From: an uncultured Bacilli bacterium | GTDB lineage: Bacteria; Bacillota_I; Bacilli_A; RF39; UBA660 | Reading direction: 5' to 3' | NCBI GenBank assembly: GCA_947628365.1 | Contig: CANQZN010000066.1 | Span: 1 to 6,001 of the forward strand | DNA length: 6,001 nucleotides | In this document: positions 1 through 6,001 of the stretch, one piece after another | How positions within the stretch are numbered: the stretch's first letter is position 1 | Layout: the number at the start of each line of letters is the position of its first letter | The notes under the pieces: model-generated | What the model was told of the DNA's origin: nothing | Database searches by the model: none | Seen by the model: only the letters and a program-made list of their open reading frames with translations | Made by a program: the position numbers and the translations under genes

Positions 1-104
1 TTTGCACTATAAGCCTCACGGCTTATTTTTCCTGTTTCATAGGATTTTACTCCTCCACAGGCCATATTTCCGACAGTCGCTGCCGTACTTATTTTTTTTA
101 TTAT
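1..104 (-). pseudogene. TnpB C-terminal-like fragment / omega-RNA-like region (partial, continues left of window)
   Basis: The frame is open from 104 to the window edge after a TAA at 107-105. The only ATG (65-63) has no good SD. The peptide ..TAATVGNMACGGVKSYETGKISREAYSA.. resembles TnpB tails, and there is a stable hairpin at 9-26. Confidence 0.35.
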
Positions 105-114
105 TTATTTAATT

Positions 115-201
115 TTAATAATTTTCTTTATAGTAACTTATTATTTCTACTTGTTTTACATTTGGATACATTCTAAATTTGTATGCGTGATTAACTAACA
201 T
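115..201 (-). pseudogene. TnpB N-terminal fragment (28 codons then TAA)
   Basis: ATG 201-199 with a strong SD. Translation is MLVNHAYKFRMYPNVKQVEIISYYKENY, with stop TAA at 117-115. This is far too short for a functional TnpB (normally about 350-450 aa). Confidence 0.5.
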
Positions 202-226
202 AACCATTACCTCCCTAGACAATATA

Positions 227-256
227 ATTATACCATACGAACAAATGTATTTACAA
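227..256 (-). promoter_or_regulatory. Sigma-70/SigA-type promoter driving the TnpB remnant
   Basis: Minus strand reads TTGTAA (256-251), an 18-nt spacer, then TGgTATAAT. The TATAAT is at 232-227 and the TGG at 235-233, giving a perfect -10 with an extended TG. Confidence 0.45.
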
Positions 257-338
257 GTGCTTTTTTACCTTTTTGAACTTTCCTATAAGATAAAAAAATG
301 CCAATCTATTATATACAATTTAGAAACAAAAAAATACT

Positions 339-384
339 TTATCCCTTTTTGTTAATAACTTGGTAGTTTTTAACAAATGGCATT
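339..384 (-). pseudogene. Orphan 3'-end fragment of a hypoxanthine-DNA glycosylase gene (direct-repeat partner of 3566-3620)
   Basis: 339-376 matches 3566-3603 at 35 of 38 nt. After a 9-nt in-frame gap, 377-384 matches 3613-3620 at 7 of 8 nt. The fragment translates as ..IIMPFVKNYQVINKKG*, versus ..CAIPFAKIVENYQVINKKK* at the intact gene end. The stop codon is at the equivalent position. Confidence 0.75.
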
Positions 385-412
385 ATAATGTATTATTCTA
401 CATTAAAAAAAA

Positions 413-1645
413 TTATTTTCGTTCTAAAATTAATTGTTTGGTTTTTTCAGGAGCTGGAATATCTTTTGTATTAATAAATATATAGTTAATCTTTTTCTGA
501 AAAAAATTGGGATCATAATGCTCAGGTGTTAAATCATTAAATATTATCCATAATACACACGGACAATTATCTGGATATATGCATTCACCATCTGTAAGAA
601 TAATTTTATTATCAGCATTATTAGAAAAGCACTCCACCATTTTTACAAAATCAGTACAACCTCTACCTACAATTTGTAAATTATCAATATCTTTTTCGGT
701 TTTTATTTCATTCCACCCATAAAATTCTATATCAAAAAATCCGACTTTCATATGACTGGCAGTCAAAATATTTTTGCACTCTCTTAAAATTGCTTTTATT
801 TTTGGCATTTGCATAGAAAAACTACTATCAATAATTATTTCACTTTCACTGTCTGACTCAGTAGGTTTTTCTTCTTTTTTTATTATTCCATCCATTTCAA
901 CTTCATAAAATGAGGTTGTTGACTCATCTGGTGAATAAATACTCTTATTTAATAAATTTTTCCAATCAAGAATTGCCTTTGATTTGCCAACATTTACACT
1001 AGGAAATTCTATACCTAAAGAAGTTTTAATTGCATTAGCATCATATTTAAGTTGTTCTTGATAATTATCCAATATTTTACTTCTTATTTTACTATTTTCA
1101 TTCATTAATTCTTCTAAATCCGTAGAATTTATTTTACTATTTTCATCCATTAGTTCTTCTAAATCTTTAGAATATATTTTATTTATCCATGTTTCTATTT
1201 CACTTATTCCCATATGATAAGTATTGCTATTCATCCATTCTTTAATTTGTTGTAAATACGGCAAATATTTCATATATAATTCCTCTACAGAATAATCTAA
1301 CGCATCTGGAATATATATTACGCCAGAAGGCATAGTTAAGCCATCTCTAACTAATAATTGATTAATAATTGCATCTTCTACAAAGTTTAATAAATCTTTA
1401 TCTTTTCCAATATTTCTTGAAAGATGATTTAACACTATATGAAATATCTCATGTGCTATTATAAACTCTTGTTCTGCATCAGTAAAATAATCTATAAAAT
1501 CTTGCTTATAGAAAATACATTCTCCGTTTGTATATGCGGGAGCAGGTACTAAATCACTACAAAGGCAAAATTGTAAATTAACAATTATATTACCAAATAA
1601 AGGATATCTTATCAAAAGTTTTTTTATAATATTATTTATTTCCAT
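413..1645 (-). CDS. HExxH metallopeptidase (DUF2201_N-like) fused to a vWA/MIDAS domain (DUF2201-like); partner of the upstream AAA+ ATPase
   Basis: 410-aa ORF. The ATG at 1645 overlaps the upstream gene's stop by 14 nt (ATGGAAATAAATAA), with AAAGG about 10 nt upstream. Zincin motif HEIFHIVLNH (H65 E66 H69 H74) is at nt 1424-1453. A Glu/Lys/Asn-rich linker carries a 15-aa tandem duplication. The C-terminal domain has MIDAS DSSFS (D273xSxS, nt 815-829), GRGCTDF and ILTDG, as I recall for the DUF2201 VWA-like domain. Confidence 0.8.
   Translation of the reverse strand: MEINNIIKKLLIRYPLFGNIIVNLQFCLCSDLVPAPAYTNGECIFYKQDFIDYFTDAEQEFIIAHEIFHIVLNHLSRNIGKDKDLLNFVEDAIINQLLVRDGLTMPSGVIYIPDALDYSVEELYMKYLPYLQQIKEWMNSNTYHMGISEIETWINKIYSKDLEELMDENSKINSTDLEELMNENSKIRSKILDNYQEQLKYDANAIKTSLGIEFPSVNVGKSKAILDWKNLLNKSIYSPDESTTSFYEVEMDGIIKKEEKPTESDSESEIIIDSSFSMQMPKIKAILRECKNILTASHMKVGFFDIEFYGWNEIKTEKDIDNLQIVGRGCTDFVKMVECFSNNADNKIILTDGECIYPDNCPCVLWIIFNDLTPEHYDPNFFQKKINYIFINTKDIPAPEKTKQLILERK
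1084..1175 (-). repeat. In-frame 45-bp tandem duplication (2 copies plus the start of a third) inside the peptidase-vWA linker
   Basis: 1086-1130 versus 1131-1175 is 40 of 45 nt identical. The units encode KDLEELMDENSKINS / TDLEELMNENSKIRS. Confidence 0.9.
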
Positions 1646-3473
1646 TTGGCACTAACCTTTTAACTAACGGACTATCATCGTTATTATATATTTTCATTAT
1701 TCTTTGTTCATTACCTTTAGACCATTCATAATCAAAAACTGCCAAAAATTCTTTTCCTAATCCACTAACAAACTCTCTAACCACATCAACATTATCATCA
1801 TCCACTGTACTCAAACATAAAGTCGTGTACCATCTAATAGATGGATTAAAAGGAATATTATCAGATGTACATTTACCACTTAAAACATCTTCAACAGTAA
1901 CTAAATTCATTTGTGAAAATTTTATAAAGTCTTTTGTTATTTCCTCCCCAACAAAAGCACGAAGAACATTTGGATTATTGCATTGATATAATGCTCGAGA
2001 AGCTAATGCCCATTTTCTAGGATCGGCATTTGGAGTTTCACCATTATAAGGAGTTCTTAAAACTTTATCTCCATTAACTCTAATATAATCTACAATAGCT
2101 GGATAAATTGTATCCCTTTCCTCAATTTTTTTATAAGTTAAAGTTCTTCCTTCTTTTTTTCTATTTGAAGCCCATTTTATCCATTCTTCAGAGTCGGTAT
2201 CAATATAAACATGAGCAAATCTTCCAAATAATGGTGCACTCATAGCATTTGCAGATCTTGACTCACTCGCTTCATTTCCTGCCGCACAAACTACAGCATT
2301 TTCAGGCAAATGTAATCTAAAACCACTATTAGTTAAAGTTTTATTAAGTGTTACTTCAAATGCTACTTTTTGAATATCATTTTTTGCATTTGTTAATTCT
2401 TCTAAAAATAGAATATGTAATAACTCTGGATGCTCTTCACATTTTTTGCACAAACTTTTATACCAATATGGCTCGTATAGGAAAAGTTCTTTAGAATTAA
2501 AATCTTTTGCAACAATACCTGTAAACCCATCTGAACTAGTACATCCAAAATCAACTAATTCTAAATTTTTATCTAATGCTATCATTCTTTCGGTTTTTCC
2601 AGCACCTGTCTTGCCATGCAGAAATACTGCTATATTACTATTAATACAAATCTCAACAATTTCTTCTTCAGTTAAATCAGAAAAATCAAATCCATATCTA
2701 TTATAATTTACTATTTCTTCTTGAAACTCAACTGAAGGTACCTTATGCTCCAACTCATCATTAATACTTTTTAAAAAATTCCCATTTAAATATCTATTTA
2801 AATCACTATTTTCAAATTCTCTTCCTTGACTATCAAAGTCTGATACCATCAAAACCATAGAAGAGTAAATTAATTGAGCATCTTCATCGACTTGAAAAGG
2901 AATTTTATCAATTTTCATATAAACAATTTTATCTTTTTCAGTTAATGTACCATCTATTAAAACACATTGTGAAGTTTTTTGACTCTTTTTAATAAATCTA
3001 ATACCAAACACTTCATATTCATCATATAAAGTATTATTTATATCATGAACTCTTCCTGTTTTTAAAATCAATTTACTTTTAGTTTTAAATAGTTCGTCAA
3101 TTGTTTTTCCAAACATACCACCAATTGCAAATAAAGGGTATTCACATACTAAATTATCTATTTCATTTAATTTAAAATCTTCAATATCATTAAAATGTAT
3201 CGCTATTCTTACGCCAACTGGGCTTTTACCAGAATATGATGAAGATAAATTACCATTTTTATCAACATACTTCATAGCATTCTTCTTTTTATCACTTGAT
3301 GGTTTCCCATTGTACCAGTAAGCGCCAAAACCATTTGATGGATTATATTCAATTCCCATAACCCTAGCTAAATCAGAGCAATAGCACTCAAGTCCAATTT
3401 GTTTAAGAGTAGGAATCATATCAAGATTTTTTATATGATTTTCTTTTAATATACCGACTTTTTTTATCTTCAT
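1632..3473 (-). CDS. AAA_5-type (MoxR/McrB-clade) P-loop ATPase with a ~285-aa non-ATPase N-terminal module (DUF6273-like?) and a helical C-terminal region
   Basis: The ORF track opens at a TTG (3491), but the ATG at 3473 has GGGGGA (3485-3480) 6 nt upstream, so I call 613 aa. Walker A GKTGAGKT is at nt 2592-2615. A Walker B-like ILFLEE is at nt 2397-2414. VVCAAGNEASESRS is a sensor-1 region resembling both MoxR ..TQNP.. and McrB ..MNTADRS. LFGRF sits where MoxR has LDRF. The N-terminal part has no NTPase motifs and contains GFGAYWY and ENSDLNRYLNGNFLKSI. Confidence 0.8.
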   Translation of the reverse strand: MKIKKVGILKENHIKNLDMIPTLKQIGLECYCSDLARVMGIEYNPSNGFGAYWYNGKPSSDKKKNAMKYVDKNGNLSSSYSGKSPVGVRIAIHFNDIEDFKLNEIDNLVCEYPLFAIGGMFGKTIDELFKTKSKLILKTGRVHDINNTLYDEYEVFGIRFIKKSQKTSQCVLIDGTLTEKDKIVYMKIDKIPFQVDEDAQLIYSSMVLMVSDFDSQGREFENSDLNRYLNGNFLKSINDELEHKVPSVEFQEEIVNYNRYGFDFSDLTEEEIVEICINSNIAVFLHGKTGAGKTERMIALDKNLELVDFGCTSSDGFTGIVAKDFNSKELFLYEPYWYKSLCKKCEEHPELLHILFLEELTNAKNDIQKVAFEVTLNKTLTNSGFRLHLPENAVVCAAGNEASESRSANAMSAPLFGRFAHVYIDTDSEEWIKWASNRKKEGRTLTYKKIEERDTIYPAIVDYIRVNGDKVLRTPYNGETPNADPRKWALASRALYQCNNPNVLRAFVGEEITKDFIKFSQMNLVTVEDVLSGKCTSDNIPFNPSIRWYTTLCLSTVDDDNVDVVREFVSGLGKEFLAVFDYEWSKGNEQRIMKIYNNDDSPLVKRLVPNGNK

Positions 3474-3497
3474 TATAAGTCCCCCTAACAAAATATT

Positions 3498-3526
3498 AAT
3501 ATACCATAAATAGTCTTTTTTTACAA
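3498..3526 (-). promoter_or_regulatory. Sigma-70/SigA-type promoter of the ATPase/vWA cassette
   Basis: Minus strand reads TTGTAA (3526-3521), a 17-nt spacer, then TGgTATATT. The TATATT is at 3503-3498 and the TGG at 3506-3504. It lies about 25 nt upstream of the ATG at 3473. Confidence 0.5.
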
Positions 3527-3565
3527 TTACAAACTATATTCTAAAAACTCTCAACTTTAGATATT

Positions 3566-4054
3566 TTATTTCTTTTTGTTAATAACTTGGTAGTTTTCAA
3601 CAATTTTAGCAAATGGTATTGCACAATTAGCGGGTGATGGTGAGTATAAACAAGTTGCCTCTATATGTGTTTTTGGTAAAATATACTTATTATATAATTC
3701 ATGAGCTTTCTTACCAGTTGTAAATATATATTTTATATTAGTTTCTTTTATTAATTTATTTATATTATTAGGTATCACTTTAGTTATAGATGAATCGCTA
3801 GATCCTTTAATATTACACGATTTAATAACATCCCATAAAGCAATATGATTATTTTTTAAAAATTCTTTTTTAGAAGAAATATCATCACCAATTGTAGTAT
3901 TAAAAACACTTTCTAATATTTTCCAAAATCTATTTTGTTTATGCATATAATAGAAACCTAATTCTCGTGATTTTACCGAAGGAAAAGAACCAAGTATTAA
4001 GATTTCACTATCTTGTTCATAAAATGGTGGAAAAGAATGATTAACTCTTGCCAT
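3566..4054 (-). CDS. UDG-superfamily family-6 glycosylase (hypoxanthine-DNA / DNA-deoxyinosine glycosylase)
   Basis: 162-aa ORF. The N-terminal HSFPPFYEQDSEILILGSFPSVKSRELGFYYMHKQNRFWKIL matches the pattern I recall for bacterial deoxyinosine glycosylases (..iLiLGsFPS..S....YY.h..NrFW..l). The start is 2 nt after the HAD gene stop, indicating translational coupling. Confidence 0.75.
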   Translation of the reverse strand: MARVNHSFPPFYEQDSEILILGSFPSVKSRELGFYYMHKQNRFWKILESVFNTTIGDDISSKKEFLKNNHIALWDVIKSCNIKGSSDSSITKVIPNNINKLIKETNIKYIFTTGKKAHELYNKYILPKTHIEATCLYSPSPANCAIPFAKIVENYQVINKKK

Positions 4055-4056
4055 AA

Positions 4057-4590
4057 CTATTTTTCTCTTTTTAATTCATAATCTTTATCTAATGTTTTAT
4101 TAAATATCTGTTTAGCATGTTCATAATCAGGAATAGAAATACCTACATAATAATTAATCTTAACAAAATGATCTTGTTGATTAGGTAACATCCTTTCTTC
4201 ATCATCTAATATAACATAATTTTCTACCTCAAGGTGATTATCTAAATATTCTTGAATTTCTTCTCCTCTTGTTAATCTAAAATCATCATGAGGTGTTACA
4301 TCAATTACTTCAATACTTTCTAATAAACCCGAATTAACGAGTAATTCTTTTAAATATGGAATACCTAGAACTTTCCAAGTAGATGAAATAACAATTTTTG
4401 CATTGCATTCCATACATAATTTATTAAGTAACATTATTGCTTGACGATTATATAATTTTTTGTCTGTTGGAAAAGCAAGTCCATAATAAAATCCATCTTT
4501 CTTTGTTTTGCCATGAATTAAATCAAATGGCTCTGTATCTAAAAGAGGCGTATTAACAACACCATCAATATCTAAAAAAACTATATTCAT
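4057..4590 (-). CDS. Small stand-alone HAD-superfamily phosphatase (HAD_SAK_2-like)
   Basis: 177-aa ORF with AGGAGA 10 nt upstream of the ATG. HAD motif I is FLDIDGVVN (DxD). Motif II is VISSTWK. The acidic motif is YVILDDEE. RGEEIQEYL and overall size match the small 'HAD domain-containing protein' family as I remember it. Confidence 0.7.
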   Translation of the reverse strand: MNIVFLDIDGVVNTPLLDTEPFDLIHGKTKKDGFYYGLAFPTDKKLYNRQAIMLLNKLCMECNAKIVISSTWKVLGIPYLKELLVNSGLLESIEVIDVTPHDDFRLTRGEEIQEYLDNHLEVENYVILDDEERMLPNQQDHFVKINYYVGISIPDYEHAKQIFNKTLDKDYELKREK

Positions 4591-4622
4591 ATTTTCACTA
4601 TCTCCTAATTAAGTTAGCCTTT

Positions 4623-4631
4623 ATTATAACA
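4623..4631 (-). promoter_or_regulatory. Possible proximal extended -10 promoter for the HAD/glycosylase operon
   Basis: Minus strand reads TGtTATAAT (TATAAT 4628-4623, TGT 4631-4629). It lies just downstream of the 4651-4688 terminator and about 30 nt before the HAD ATG. There is no good -35. Such hexamers arise by chance in A+T-rich DNA. Confidence 0.3.
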
Positions 4632-4650
4632 CAAATTAAAAATAAGAAAT

Positions 4651-4688
4651 AAAAAAATTAAGCCCATAGTATATAATACTACGAGCTT
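4651..4688 (-). terminator. Intrinsic terminator between rpsI and the HAD gene
   Basis: Minus strand reads AAGCUCGUAGUAU-UAU-AUACUAUGGGCUU. This is a 13-bp stem (11 Watson-Crick plus 2 G-U pairs) with a 3-nt loop, followed by AAUUUUUUU. Confidence 0.7.
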
Positions 4689-4805
4689 AGAATAATTCAG
4701 CAGTCTCCCAGTCTCTACATGTATTCTTTCGGTATAACCTACTCTAACCTTATATAATAAGGCGTCAGTGCAAGAAGAAATATTTACACCCTTAAATTAT
4801 TTCAT
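4689..4805 (-). ncRNA. Candidate structured RNA (riboswitch-like leader of the HAD/glycosylase operon, or an independent sRNA); class not recognised
   Basis: It is bounded by a candidate promoter (4812-4840) and the terminator (4651-4688). It contains the hairpin CCUUAU-UAU-AUAAGG. It also has a long-range helix, GGUUAGAGUAG (4749-4739) with UUAUUCUAAGC (4695-4685), in which 10 of 11 positions pair. The 3' strand of that helix shares AAGC with the terminator 5' arm. Confidence 0.4.
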
Positions 4806-4811
4806 GTAATA

Positions 4812-4840
4812 TTCATACCATTAATTTTATAAAAAATCAA
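4812..4840 (-). promoter_or_regulatory. Candidate promoter downstream of the rpsI terminator
   Basis: Minus strand reads TTGATT (4840-4835), a 17-nt spacer, then TGgTATGAA (TATGAA 4817-4812). The -10 is imperfect. Confidence 0.35.
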
Positions 4841-4885
4841 TCGTTTTTTTATTTGCATCTATTTAAATTAACAAATATTTTTAAC

Positions 4886-4916
4886 AAAAAACCTCATAAA
4901 CAATATGTTTACGAGG
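4886..4916 (-). terminator. Intrinsic terminator of the rplM-rpsI operon
   Basis: Minus strand reads CCUCGUAAACA-UAU-UGUUUAUGAGG, an 11-bp stem including one G-U pair, followed by UUUUUU. It lies 19 nt after the rpsI stop. Confidence 0.8.
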
Positions 4917-4934
4917 CATAAAGAAACTTGATTT

Positions 4935-5354
4935 CTAACGTTTACTAAATTGTGGAGCACGACGTGCTTTCTTCAAACCATATTTCTTACGTTCTTTAAC
5001 TCTTGGATCTCTTGTAATTAATCCTTCAGCTTTTAAAATATGTCTATAACTATCTTCTCTAGTTTGATCAGTATTAGCATCAAATTTTAATAATGCTCTA
5101 GCAATAGCTAATCTAATAGCACCAGCTTGACCATTATATCCACCACCATTAACTTTAACTTCGATATCAAATCTATTTTCATTATCAGTAGCTACTAATG
5201 GTTGTTTTAAATCCATAACTAATGTTGCAGATGGCATATATTCATCAACATTAACACCATTAACAACGATATTGCCTGTACCACCAACAAGTTTAACTTG
5301 TGCAACTGCTTGTTTTCTTCTTCCTGTTGCAGACCAAATTTGTTTATTTGCCAT
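4935..5354 (-). CDS. rpsI: 30S ribosomal protein S9
   Basis: 139-aa ORF containing [29 protein letters not shown] and the C-terminal [12 protein letters not shown] typical of S9. AGGAGG lies just upstream, and the gene follows rplM as in the conserved operon. Confidence 0.95.
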
Positions 5355-5362
5355 ATATCCTC

Positions 5363-5794
5363 CTAATCAATTTCTATAGCTACAGGTTTTTGAGCTTCAT
5401 GTTTATGATTTTCATCTTTATAAACAAATAACTTTTTACCCATTGCTCTTCCTAAACTATTATGTGGCATCATACCTTTAACTGCTCTTTCAAGCATTTC
5501 TTCAGGATAACTTTCAATCATAACTTTAGCAGTTCTCTCTCTAAGTCCTCCTGGATAACCTGAGTGATTATAATACTTTTTATCAGTTAATTTTTTACCA
5601 CTTAATGTTACTTTAGAAGCGTTAATAATAATTACATAATCGCCACAATCAACATAAGGTGTATAAGTTGGTTTATGTTTTCCTCTTAATATATTAGCGG
5701 CTTTTGTTGCAACTCTTCCTAATGGTTTACCAGCTGCATCAATAACATACCAATTTCTTTCAACTGTTTCTTTTTTTTGCATAAATGATTTCAT
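5363..5794 (-). CDS. rplM: 50S ribosomal protein L13
   Basis: 143-aa ORF containing [48 protein letters not shown] and [10 protein letters not shown], classic L13 blocks. GGAAGGAAA is 8 nt upstream of the ATG. Confidence 0.95.
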
Positions 5795-5882
5795 AAATAT
5801 TTCCTTCCATTATGTTATCCATTAAACTTTCCCACGGCTTAATAAACTCCATAAATAAAATGTACCATATTAAATTATATTT

Positions 5883-5920
5883 AAAAAGTACGATTCTGTC
5901 AATCAAAATCGTACTTTTTT
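5883..5920 (-). terminator. Intrinsic (sequence-symmetric) terminator upstream of rplM, ending the preceding minus-strand gene
   Basis: GTACGATT (5888-5895) pairs with AATCGTAC (5907-5914) around an 11-nt loop. The stem is extended by flanking A and T runs, and a T-run follows on both strands. Confidence 0.6.
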
Positions 5921-6001
5921 ATTTATTTTCTGACTTGGACAAGTAAAAGCAATTTTTATAAATGGAGTTGCATTTACTTTTCCAAAATAAGTTGCATTAA
6001 G
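5903..6001 (-). CDS. Possible 3' end of an unidentified upstream CDS (partial)
   Basis: This is the only frame open to the right window edge: ..LNATYFGKVNATPFIKIAFTCPSQKINKKVRF*. The TGA at 5905-5903 lies in the terminator loop. No recognisable motif, so the product is unknown. Confidence 0.3.
   Translation of the reverse strand, partial: LNATYFGKVNATPFIKIAFTCPSQKINKKVRF

Follow-up and report, generated by a model that had tools for sequence, protein, structure and literature searches.

An N-terminal DUF6273-like domain with its halves in swapped order on a MoxR-type ATPase paired with a metallopeptidase-vWA protein

MoxR-type ATPases accompanied by vWA partners abound, but it is almost never known what they recognise. 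A 6,001-nucleotide (nt) stretch from an uncultured Bacilli bacterium (contig CANQZN010000066.1, positions 1 to 6,001 of the forward strand, assembly GCA_947628365.1), here called the window, carries a pair of this kind: P0001, whose product joins an N-terminal module to an AAA_5/MoxR-like ATPase, and P0002, whose product joins a metallopeptidase to a vWA-like domain. What is the module, and what could it do for the motor behind it? In this case the motor bears a recognisable binding domain, and therefore the question of what it senses is directly testable. We find that the N-terminal region is a real, well-folded and fast-evolving domain, and that its homology to DUF6273 (Pfam PF19789), remote as it is, is well supported.

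A preliminary description of the locus had proposed an unusual module of about 285 amino acids (aa), likened it to DUF6273 by a motif and noted its fusion to the ATPase as one not seen described. The peptides on which it leaned lie where it placed them (GFGAYWYNG at residues 48-56, IPFQVDED...SDFD at 191-214 and ENSDLNRYLNGNFLKSINDEL at 221-241), and no P-loop motif is found N-terminal of Walker A, which directly follows the module end given there. That end was nevertheless set too far downstream: the module has about 250 residues. We place its end at 250-252 because the profile phrog_1297 ('ATPase'; residues 271-588 of P0001, E 4e-39, 317 of 356 profile positions) starts at residue 271, and because the ATPase model aligns right behind the module in distant fusions. 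Residues 253-286 belong to the ATPase: after an invariant NRY, EEIVEICINSNIAVFLHG supplies a helix and a strand that run into the P-loop.

A word-indexed search with residues 1-290 returned 73 homologous proteins, nearly all of 600-634 aa and 40-83% identical across the region, which already removes the fusion from the class of one-offs. P0001 and all of the homologues share the N-terminus MKIKK in the alignment, and the ATG start at 3473 is preceded by a GGGGGA ribosome-binding site. Built with the homologue alignment, the AlphaFold2 model of the module has a mean predicted local distance difference test score (pLDDT) of 88.5 and a predicted template modelling score (pTM) of 0.81, and shows mixed alpha/beta structure with no disorder as far as residue ~250; the alignment of the module holds 22 invariant columns and about 40 nearly invariant ones. 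The region is thus folded and conserved among homologues, where the preliminary description had allowed for disorder or poor conservation, and it does not correspond to any MoxR N-terminal domain that is annotated already. Mean pairwise identity within the family is 49% for the module, 84% for the ATPase core and 68% for the C-terminal part. Entropy peaks at module residues 51-80, and residues ~50-85, between YW.DG and GVR, are the family's most variable stretch and the site of its insertions and deletions; the insert at 101-150 is conserved within the module family.

The module's only Pfam match is to PF19789, over 33 residues (218-250 against profile positions 31-63 of 172; E 0.001) that carry the motif named in the preliminary description. 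At 19.1 bits with residues 1-290 and 17.3 bits with the whole protein, the match stays below the gathering cut-off of 23.5 bits, and by Pfam's own rule the module is not a PF19789 member. The same weak match is given by 18 of 45 homologues (best E 0.001), and it is therefore not noise. Wider searches point the same way: (i) With the module profile (residues 1-252), HMMER was run exhaustively over 1.8 billion representatives and recovered 407 clusters at E <= 1e-3, mostly covering profile positions ~5-240. Among them is P0212 (whole-library E 8.5e-9), a genuine DUF6273 protein with several such domains, which scores 75.3 bits on PF19789. (ii) A canonical DUF6273 hidden Markov model (HMM), built from 15 domains of the same bacterial order, gives up to 23 bits on native module sequences and at least 15 bits on 29 of 209, while reversed and shuffled controls give at most 9.7 bits and none of 209 reaches 15. 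(iii) In a protein-language-model search, DUF6273 accounts for 25 of the 30 nearest named clusters, with scores up to 0.94. (iv) A structure search of the ESM Atlas finds a cluster annotated LRR_5 + DUF6273 (TM 0.64 over 225 residues), together with several ATPase clusters that have the same head, among them an AAA_5 cluster with DUF6273 in 11% of its members. The kinship guessed from the motif therefore stands; membership of PF19789, and collinearity with it, do not.

The matching blocks come in the opposite order to that of the canonical domain. Features of the DUF6273 C-terminal half (kIGLm..sey, WWLRS, V..G, GVRP) fall at module residues ~20-100, and those of the N-terminal half (a beta-meander and the W..S.l..YLN..F helix) at ~150-250. 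On P0001 the canonical HMM puts its positions 158-197 on residues 51-92 and its positions 5-86 on residues 152-250, the latter at 16.6 bits as against at most 9.7 for shuffled or reversed sequence; ahead of residue 152 it aligns nothing except residues 51-92. Relatives such as P0197 show the same swapped placement with this HMM, and the Pfam model lays its positions 105-170 on residues 28-88 of P0101 and its positions 26-69 on residues 230-274 of P0197. In P0212, a block matching module positions 173-236 precedes one matching positions 29-94, and Pfam positions 1-59 fall on the 173-236 block. With hhalign, module residues 70-95 go to the template end and residues 219-241 to template positions 59-81; with a permuted module alignment the two short matches were not joined into one long alignment. 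No collinear match covers most of the 172 positions of PF19789. GVRP, the C-terminal protein end in canonical single-copy DUF6273 proteins, belongs in the module to the half that starts the protein. The simplest reading of this order would be a circular permutation of a C-type-lectin-like domain, with an alpha/beta piece inserted at residues ~101-150.

When solved structures were searched by sequence, nothing useful came from the module profile, from the ATPase part or from the partner, and a profile of canonical DUF6273 domains matched no PDB chain. Foldseek with the module found no match at E <= 0.001 in the PDB and none in the BFVD viral models, where the top row is a DUF6273 protein, yet at E 0.025 and TM 0.22. 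The module matches nothing meaningful in NCBIfam.

An architecture census of 148 distant representatives shows the company that the module keeps. Stand-alone proteins of ~260-360 aa make up 64, and 50 extend beyond the module on its C-terminal side, with pentapeptide repeats in one that was scanned. The same ATPase follows the module in 15, one of them with two tandem modules; four more consist of two tandem modules. In eight the module is not N-terminal, with an N-terminal region ahead of it and, in those scanned, LRR_5, ankyrin or DUF4116 repeats behind; seven are partial or fragments. ATPase fusions thus recur across distant representatives and must be old. Wherever a homologous locus was read, a DUF2201 gene follows the module-ATPase gene. 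Because the module usually begins at residues 1-10, the family members have no signal peptide and are predicted to be cytoplasmic. No Pfam family names the module, and IMG/VR viral contigs scanned with the module alignment held no relative. One locus carries seven successive genes of 274-277 aa, 4 nt apart (L045:5169-11003). Its member P0101 is a stand-alone module; four of the seven, P0101 included, give faint DUF6273 matches and the other three have no recorded match. The arrangement looks like a tandem paralogue array, and this would suggest diversification of a binding protein.

What could such a domain do on a MoxR-like motor? With moderate confidence, we read the permuted DUF6273-like head as the probable specificity element of a mobile two-gene MoxR/metallopeptidase-vWA system of the conflict type, one that would bind a ligand or target and use the protease as effector. 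A role as sensor or target-recognition part is suggested by the module's fast divergence, by what is known of C-type lectin and DUF6273 domains, by genomic context and by analogy with established MoxR-vWA pairs and with MoxR-vWA conflict systems, in which lectin-fold FGS domains are a known component (Kaur et al. 2020, PMC7159879). The variable loop (~50-85), placed where retroelements mutate canonical lectin/DUF6273 domains, would bind the ligand or target protein, which would probably come from an invading element. The ATPase could then respond to binding by remodelling either the vWA-peptidase partner or the bound target, and the vWA-tethered protease would be released or activated on its target. 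Should the pair prove to act in defence, the poorly studied gut Bacillota with small genomes would contribute a further type of defence system, lectin-gated and protease-based. A bolder extension, possible but in our view rather doubtful, would see in the module a large family, still without a name, of lectin-like receptors that are circularly permuted and cytoplasmic (over 400 clusters, as stand-alone proteins, tandem arrays and fusions). On the MoxR-like motor it would serve as an interchangeable, antibody-like sensor licensing the vWA-tethered metalloprotease, in a two-gene immune system whose specificity would change by swapping or diversifying the head.

Several observations weigh against the proposed recognition role or the kinship beneath it. 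There is no direct significant DUF6273 match, the Pfam score being under the cut-off, and hhalign of the module against DUF6273 gives only two short motif alignments at a probability under 10%. The permutation is read from sequence order alone; a model of a canonical DUF6273 domain from the same order's genomes reached only pLDDT 41 and was not used. The polar residues D34, R89, T139, E152 and D174 are invariant in the family, which could mean catalysis or a fixed ligand. Walker B of P0001 has EE instead of DE. Housekeeping genes surround the pair in the window and in two homologous loci (L037 and L039). Finally, PADLOC-DB 2.0 contains no family that matches the ATPase, the module or the partner, and no defence function is on record.

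The housekeeping neighbours also lend themselves to another explanation, which we consider unlikely: the pair could be a housekeeping chaperone of the MoxR type, aided by a vWA co-chaperone, for the assembly or proteolytic maturation of a protein complex of the host or a prophage, the N-terminal module being a fixed substrate adaptor. The invariant polar residues would suit such an adaptor, and a jumbo-phage pair of MoxR ATPase and metallopeptidase-vWA protein has been proposed to act as chaperone and co-chaperone in assembly, with peptidolytic processing (Iyer et al. 2021, PMC7824862). The distribution of the cassette argues otherwise. Only 3 of the 151 genomes sampled from the order have the fusion, and within the genus 2 of 8 do; its locus differs between close relatives: in the same-genus genome G113 the cassette lies on another contig than the glycosylase gene that adjoins it in the window, and its ATPase and partner are 67% and 61% identical to those of the window, as compared with 85% for rpsI DNA. 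Elsewhere the cassette sits on integrative elements (L058:5861-21839 and L056:8042-17370) or in a defence island. One homologous cassette lies between a Mob_Pre relaxase and a serine recombinase; another stands behind an integrase and a primase-helicase-like gene and is followed by an SNF2 helicase, an N6 methylase, T5orf172 and an nSTAND NTPase, a typical defence island. A fixed adaptor also accords poorly with a module that evolves far faster than its ATPase, and with the ATPases of this family from cultured phages (544 records), whose alignment begins only at about residue 200-276 and which lack the N-terminal module.

Those invariant residues, to which Y52 and N230 can be added, bear likewise on the view that the module is an enzyme or small-molecule binder with one conserved ligand (nucleotide, sugar or metal). 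Distant stand-alone relatives keep the motifs D..., G.RP, EYP, TGK, EYE and LSDG, and most relatives are stand-alone cytoplasmic proteins of 260-360 aa. We nonetheless judge this view quite improbable: no enzyme family is matched in Pfam or NCBIfam, the known relatives (DUF6273 and the C-type lectin fold) are binding domains, and arrays of up to seven tandem paralogues better fit a diversified binding specificity. Just as improbable is a DUF6273 resemblance that amounts to a mere short motif shared by low-GC, N/K-rich proteins, the module being an unrelated new fold: many family members match in two separate blocks, always the same two and always swapped, no match is given by reversed and shuffled controls, the match to the 75-bit DUF6273 protein P0212 is significant, and the language-model and ESM Atlas results independently agree.

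Coordinates of the features discussed, by position in the window except for the last row (contig C11 of the same genome). Residue numbers refer to the product of the gene concerned.
Feature	Position	Strand	Residues or length	Basis
ATPase gene P0001 (N-terminal module + AAA_5/MoxR-like ATPase)	1632..3473	-	613 aa	Open reading frame and start codon
N-terminal module proper, DUF6273-like (C-type-lectin-like) domain, apparently permuted	2718..3473	-	1-252	AlphaFold2, profile searches
Counterpart of DUF6273 C-terminal half: kvGiL..e, SDLA, G.G.YW..G, variable loop, GVRIA; lectin-core-like	3174..3473	-	1-100	
Alpha/beta insert between the DUF6273-like halves: DIEDF, EYPL, TGR motifs	3024..3173	-	101-150	Secondary structure of the model
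Counterpart of DUF6273 N-terminal half: beta-meander + F..S.L..YLN..F helix	2718..3023	-	151-252	Profile alignments
Short linker, then ATPase N-terminal helix and strand; invariant NRY	2616..2717	-	253-286	Conservation, start of ATPase profile
Walker A GKTGAGKT	2592..2615	-	287-294	Read from sequence
Walker B ILFLEEL, EE in place of DE	2394..2414	-	354-360	Read from sequence
Putative sensor-1 region CAAGNE (AAGNE 397-401) and putative arginine region PLFGRF (GRF 417-419)	2217..2288	-	396-401, 414-419	Sequence
Partner P0002, HExxH metallopeptidase (DUF2201_N) + vWA-like domain (DUF2201)	413..1645	-	410 aa	Pfam, PHROG
Candidate promoter TTGTAA-17-TATATT with TG, before the ATPase gene	3498..3526	-		Consensus scan
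Direct repeat bracketing the cassette, left copy	334..376	.	43 nt	Family D3, 91% identity, spacing 3227 nt
Direct repeat bracketing the cassette, right copy (3' end of the glycosylase gene)	3561..3603	.	43 nt	Family D3
119-nt copies at the reverse transcriptase locus (contig C11)	7374-7492, 8973-9091, 9279-9397, 9605-9723, 9942-10060		119 nt	

By profile match and motifs, P0001 is classed as a MoxR-like AAA+ ATPase, even though Pfam AAA_5 reaches only 18.8 bits on it, under the 22-bit cut-off. CAAGNE and PLFGRF are assigned from AAA+ motif order as a presumed sensor-1 and a presumed arginine finger. The partner gene overlaps the ATPase stop by 14 nt, and its product matches DUF2201_N (E 9.6e-17) and DUF2201 (E 2.4e-07) in Pfam and phrog_1314 (E 2.3e-38); the motifs are HEIFH at residues 65-69 and a DSSFS at 273-277 that resembles a metal-ion-dependent adhesion site (MIDAS). 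The linker between its peptidase and vWA domains holds an in-frame 45-nt tandem duplication (1084-1173, copies 91% identical), a region where the partner alignment varies in length. A complex prediction for the module against the partner scored 0.00 and is uninformative on binding either way.

Promoter-like sites are no more frequent here than in shuffled sequence, so the one ahead of the ATPase gene is merely a candidate. A 28-nt block at 3481-3508, before this gene, is 75% identical to one at 210-237, before a short open reading frame at the left end; on the minus strand the block contains the -10 region and the ribosome-binding site, and the two units may share a promoter/Shine-Dalgarno module. 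Upstream of the cassette, at 3566-4590, lie a HAD_SAK_2 phosphatase gene (E 3.5e-26) and, directly after it, a gene for a glycosylase of the uracil-DNA glycosylase superfamily (E 4.3e-14), both downstream of rplM-rpsI. The sequence of the 43-nt repeat that brackets the cassette is present at the glycosylase gene of a same-genus genome that has no cassette. In one relative (L057:1591-13058) two related systems adjoin. The first begins with proteins of 628 and 622 aa, both similar at the DNA level to the module region, and continues with a protein of 133 aa and a DUF2201 protein of 528 aa; the second pairs a 618-aa module-ATPase with a 403-aa DUF2201 partner.

Canonical DUF6273 domains are diversified by retroelements in gut-phage receptor-binding proteins, with the variable region at the C-terminal end, and resemble C-type lectin domains (PMC10743442; bioRxiv 10.1101/2024.10.15.618418). 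The window's own genome has two reverse transcriptase genes. One is a 372-aa open reading frame on contig C11 (reverse transcriptase at 11189-11893) and has four tandem A-rich 119-nt copies upstream, the whole locus spanning 7374-11893. The copies match 119-nt stretches, ungapped and at 63-84% identity, in at least ten other contigs (C38, C14, C1, C70, C69, C24, C43, C3, C30 and C67), with differences concentrated at adenines of the A-rich copies (e.g. 13 of 19, 16 of 24). The matching stretches encode the ...GW..W.G.F.G..V...GYT...SVRPVFY end of lectin/DUF6273-like domains, and the locus looks like a diversity-generating retroelement with several targets. The module copy in the window was considered as a further target and rejected, because none of the genome's template-like repeats matches its DNA; in seven homologous loci, likewise, no template-like repeat of the module was found.

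How does the locus compare with systems already described? McrB, an AAA_5 GTPase with an N-terminal DNA-binding domain, follows the same logic of a specificity domain ahead of an AAA_5-type motor. Here the partner is DUF2201 and not McrC, the N-terminal domain is unrelated to that of McrB and the cassette has no nuclease. An McrBC-like reading was rejected because the McrC partner is absent: DUF2201 is the sole partner, and the window contains no McrC-like gene. With the pair of group 2.2 jumbo phages (PHROG 1297 + PHROG 1314) the cassette shares the ATPase core, the HExxH + vWA partner and the adjacency of the two genes; it differs in its location, which is the chromosome or an integrative element of gut Bacillota with small genomes.

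DUF6273 itself, a C-type-lectin-like domain, occurs in surface proteins of Bacillota and in the receptor-binding proteins of gut phages. Examples are the tentaclins, which diversity-generating retroelements target, and ThomasA, the IgA protease of Thomasclavelia ramosa, where it is the N-terminal domain (PDB 9qa6). Common to DUF6273 and the module are the beta-meander with the W/F..S.l..yLN..F helix and the series kvGlL..e ... yWw ... V..G ... GVRP; the N-terminal part of the module is lectin-like in look, with its variable loop where canonical domains have the retroelement-mutated region. Unlike DUF6273, the module has its blocks swapped, an insert of ~50 residues between them and a score under the Pfam cut-off. 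It also lacks a signal peptide and, unlike the classical proteins, is predicted cytoplasmic and joined to an ATPase instead of to surface or tail modules. A scaffold known chiefly from gut phages and surface proteins, as a receptor that retroelements diversify, would thus have a permuted intracellular branch outside Pfam's reach, with hundreds of clusters that now go as 'hypothetical proteins'.

The MoxR-vWA ternary conflict systems with FGS effector domains of C-type-lectin fold (PMC7159879) likewise bring together an ATPase of the MoxR type, a vWA protein and a domain of lectin fold that is held to bind molecules of the invader, and they have a similarly patchy, diversifying distribution. 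In those systems the lectin fold is on the vWA protein, the third component is VMAP or iSTAND, and the hosts are mostly multicellular bacteria. The cassette described here has two genes, with the lectin-like domain on the ATPase and a metallopeptidase on the vWA protein.

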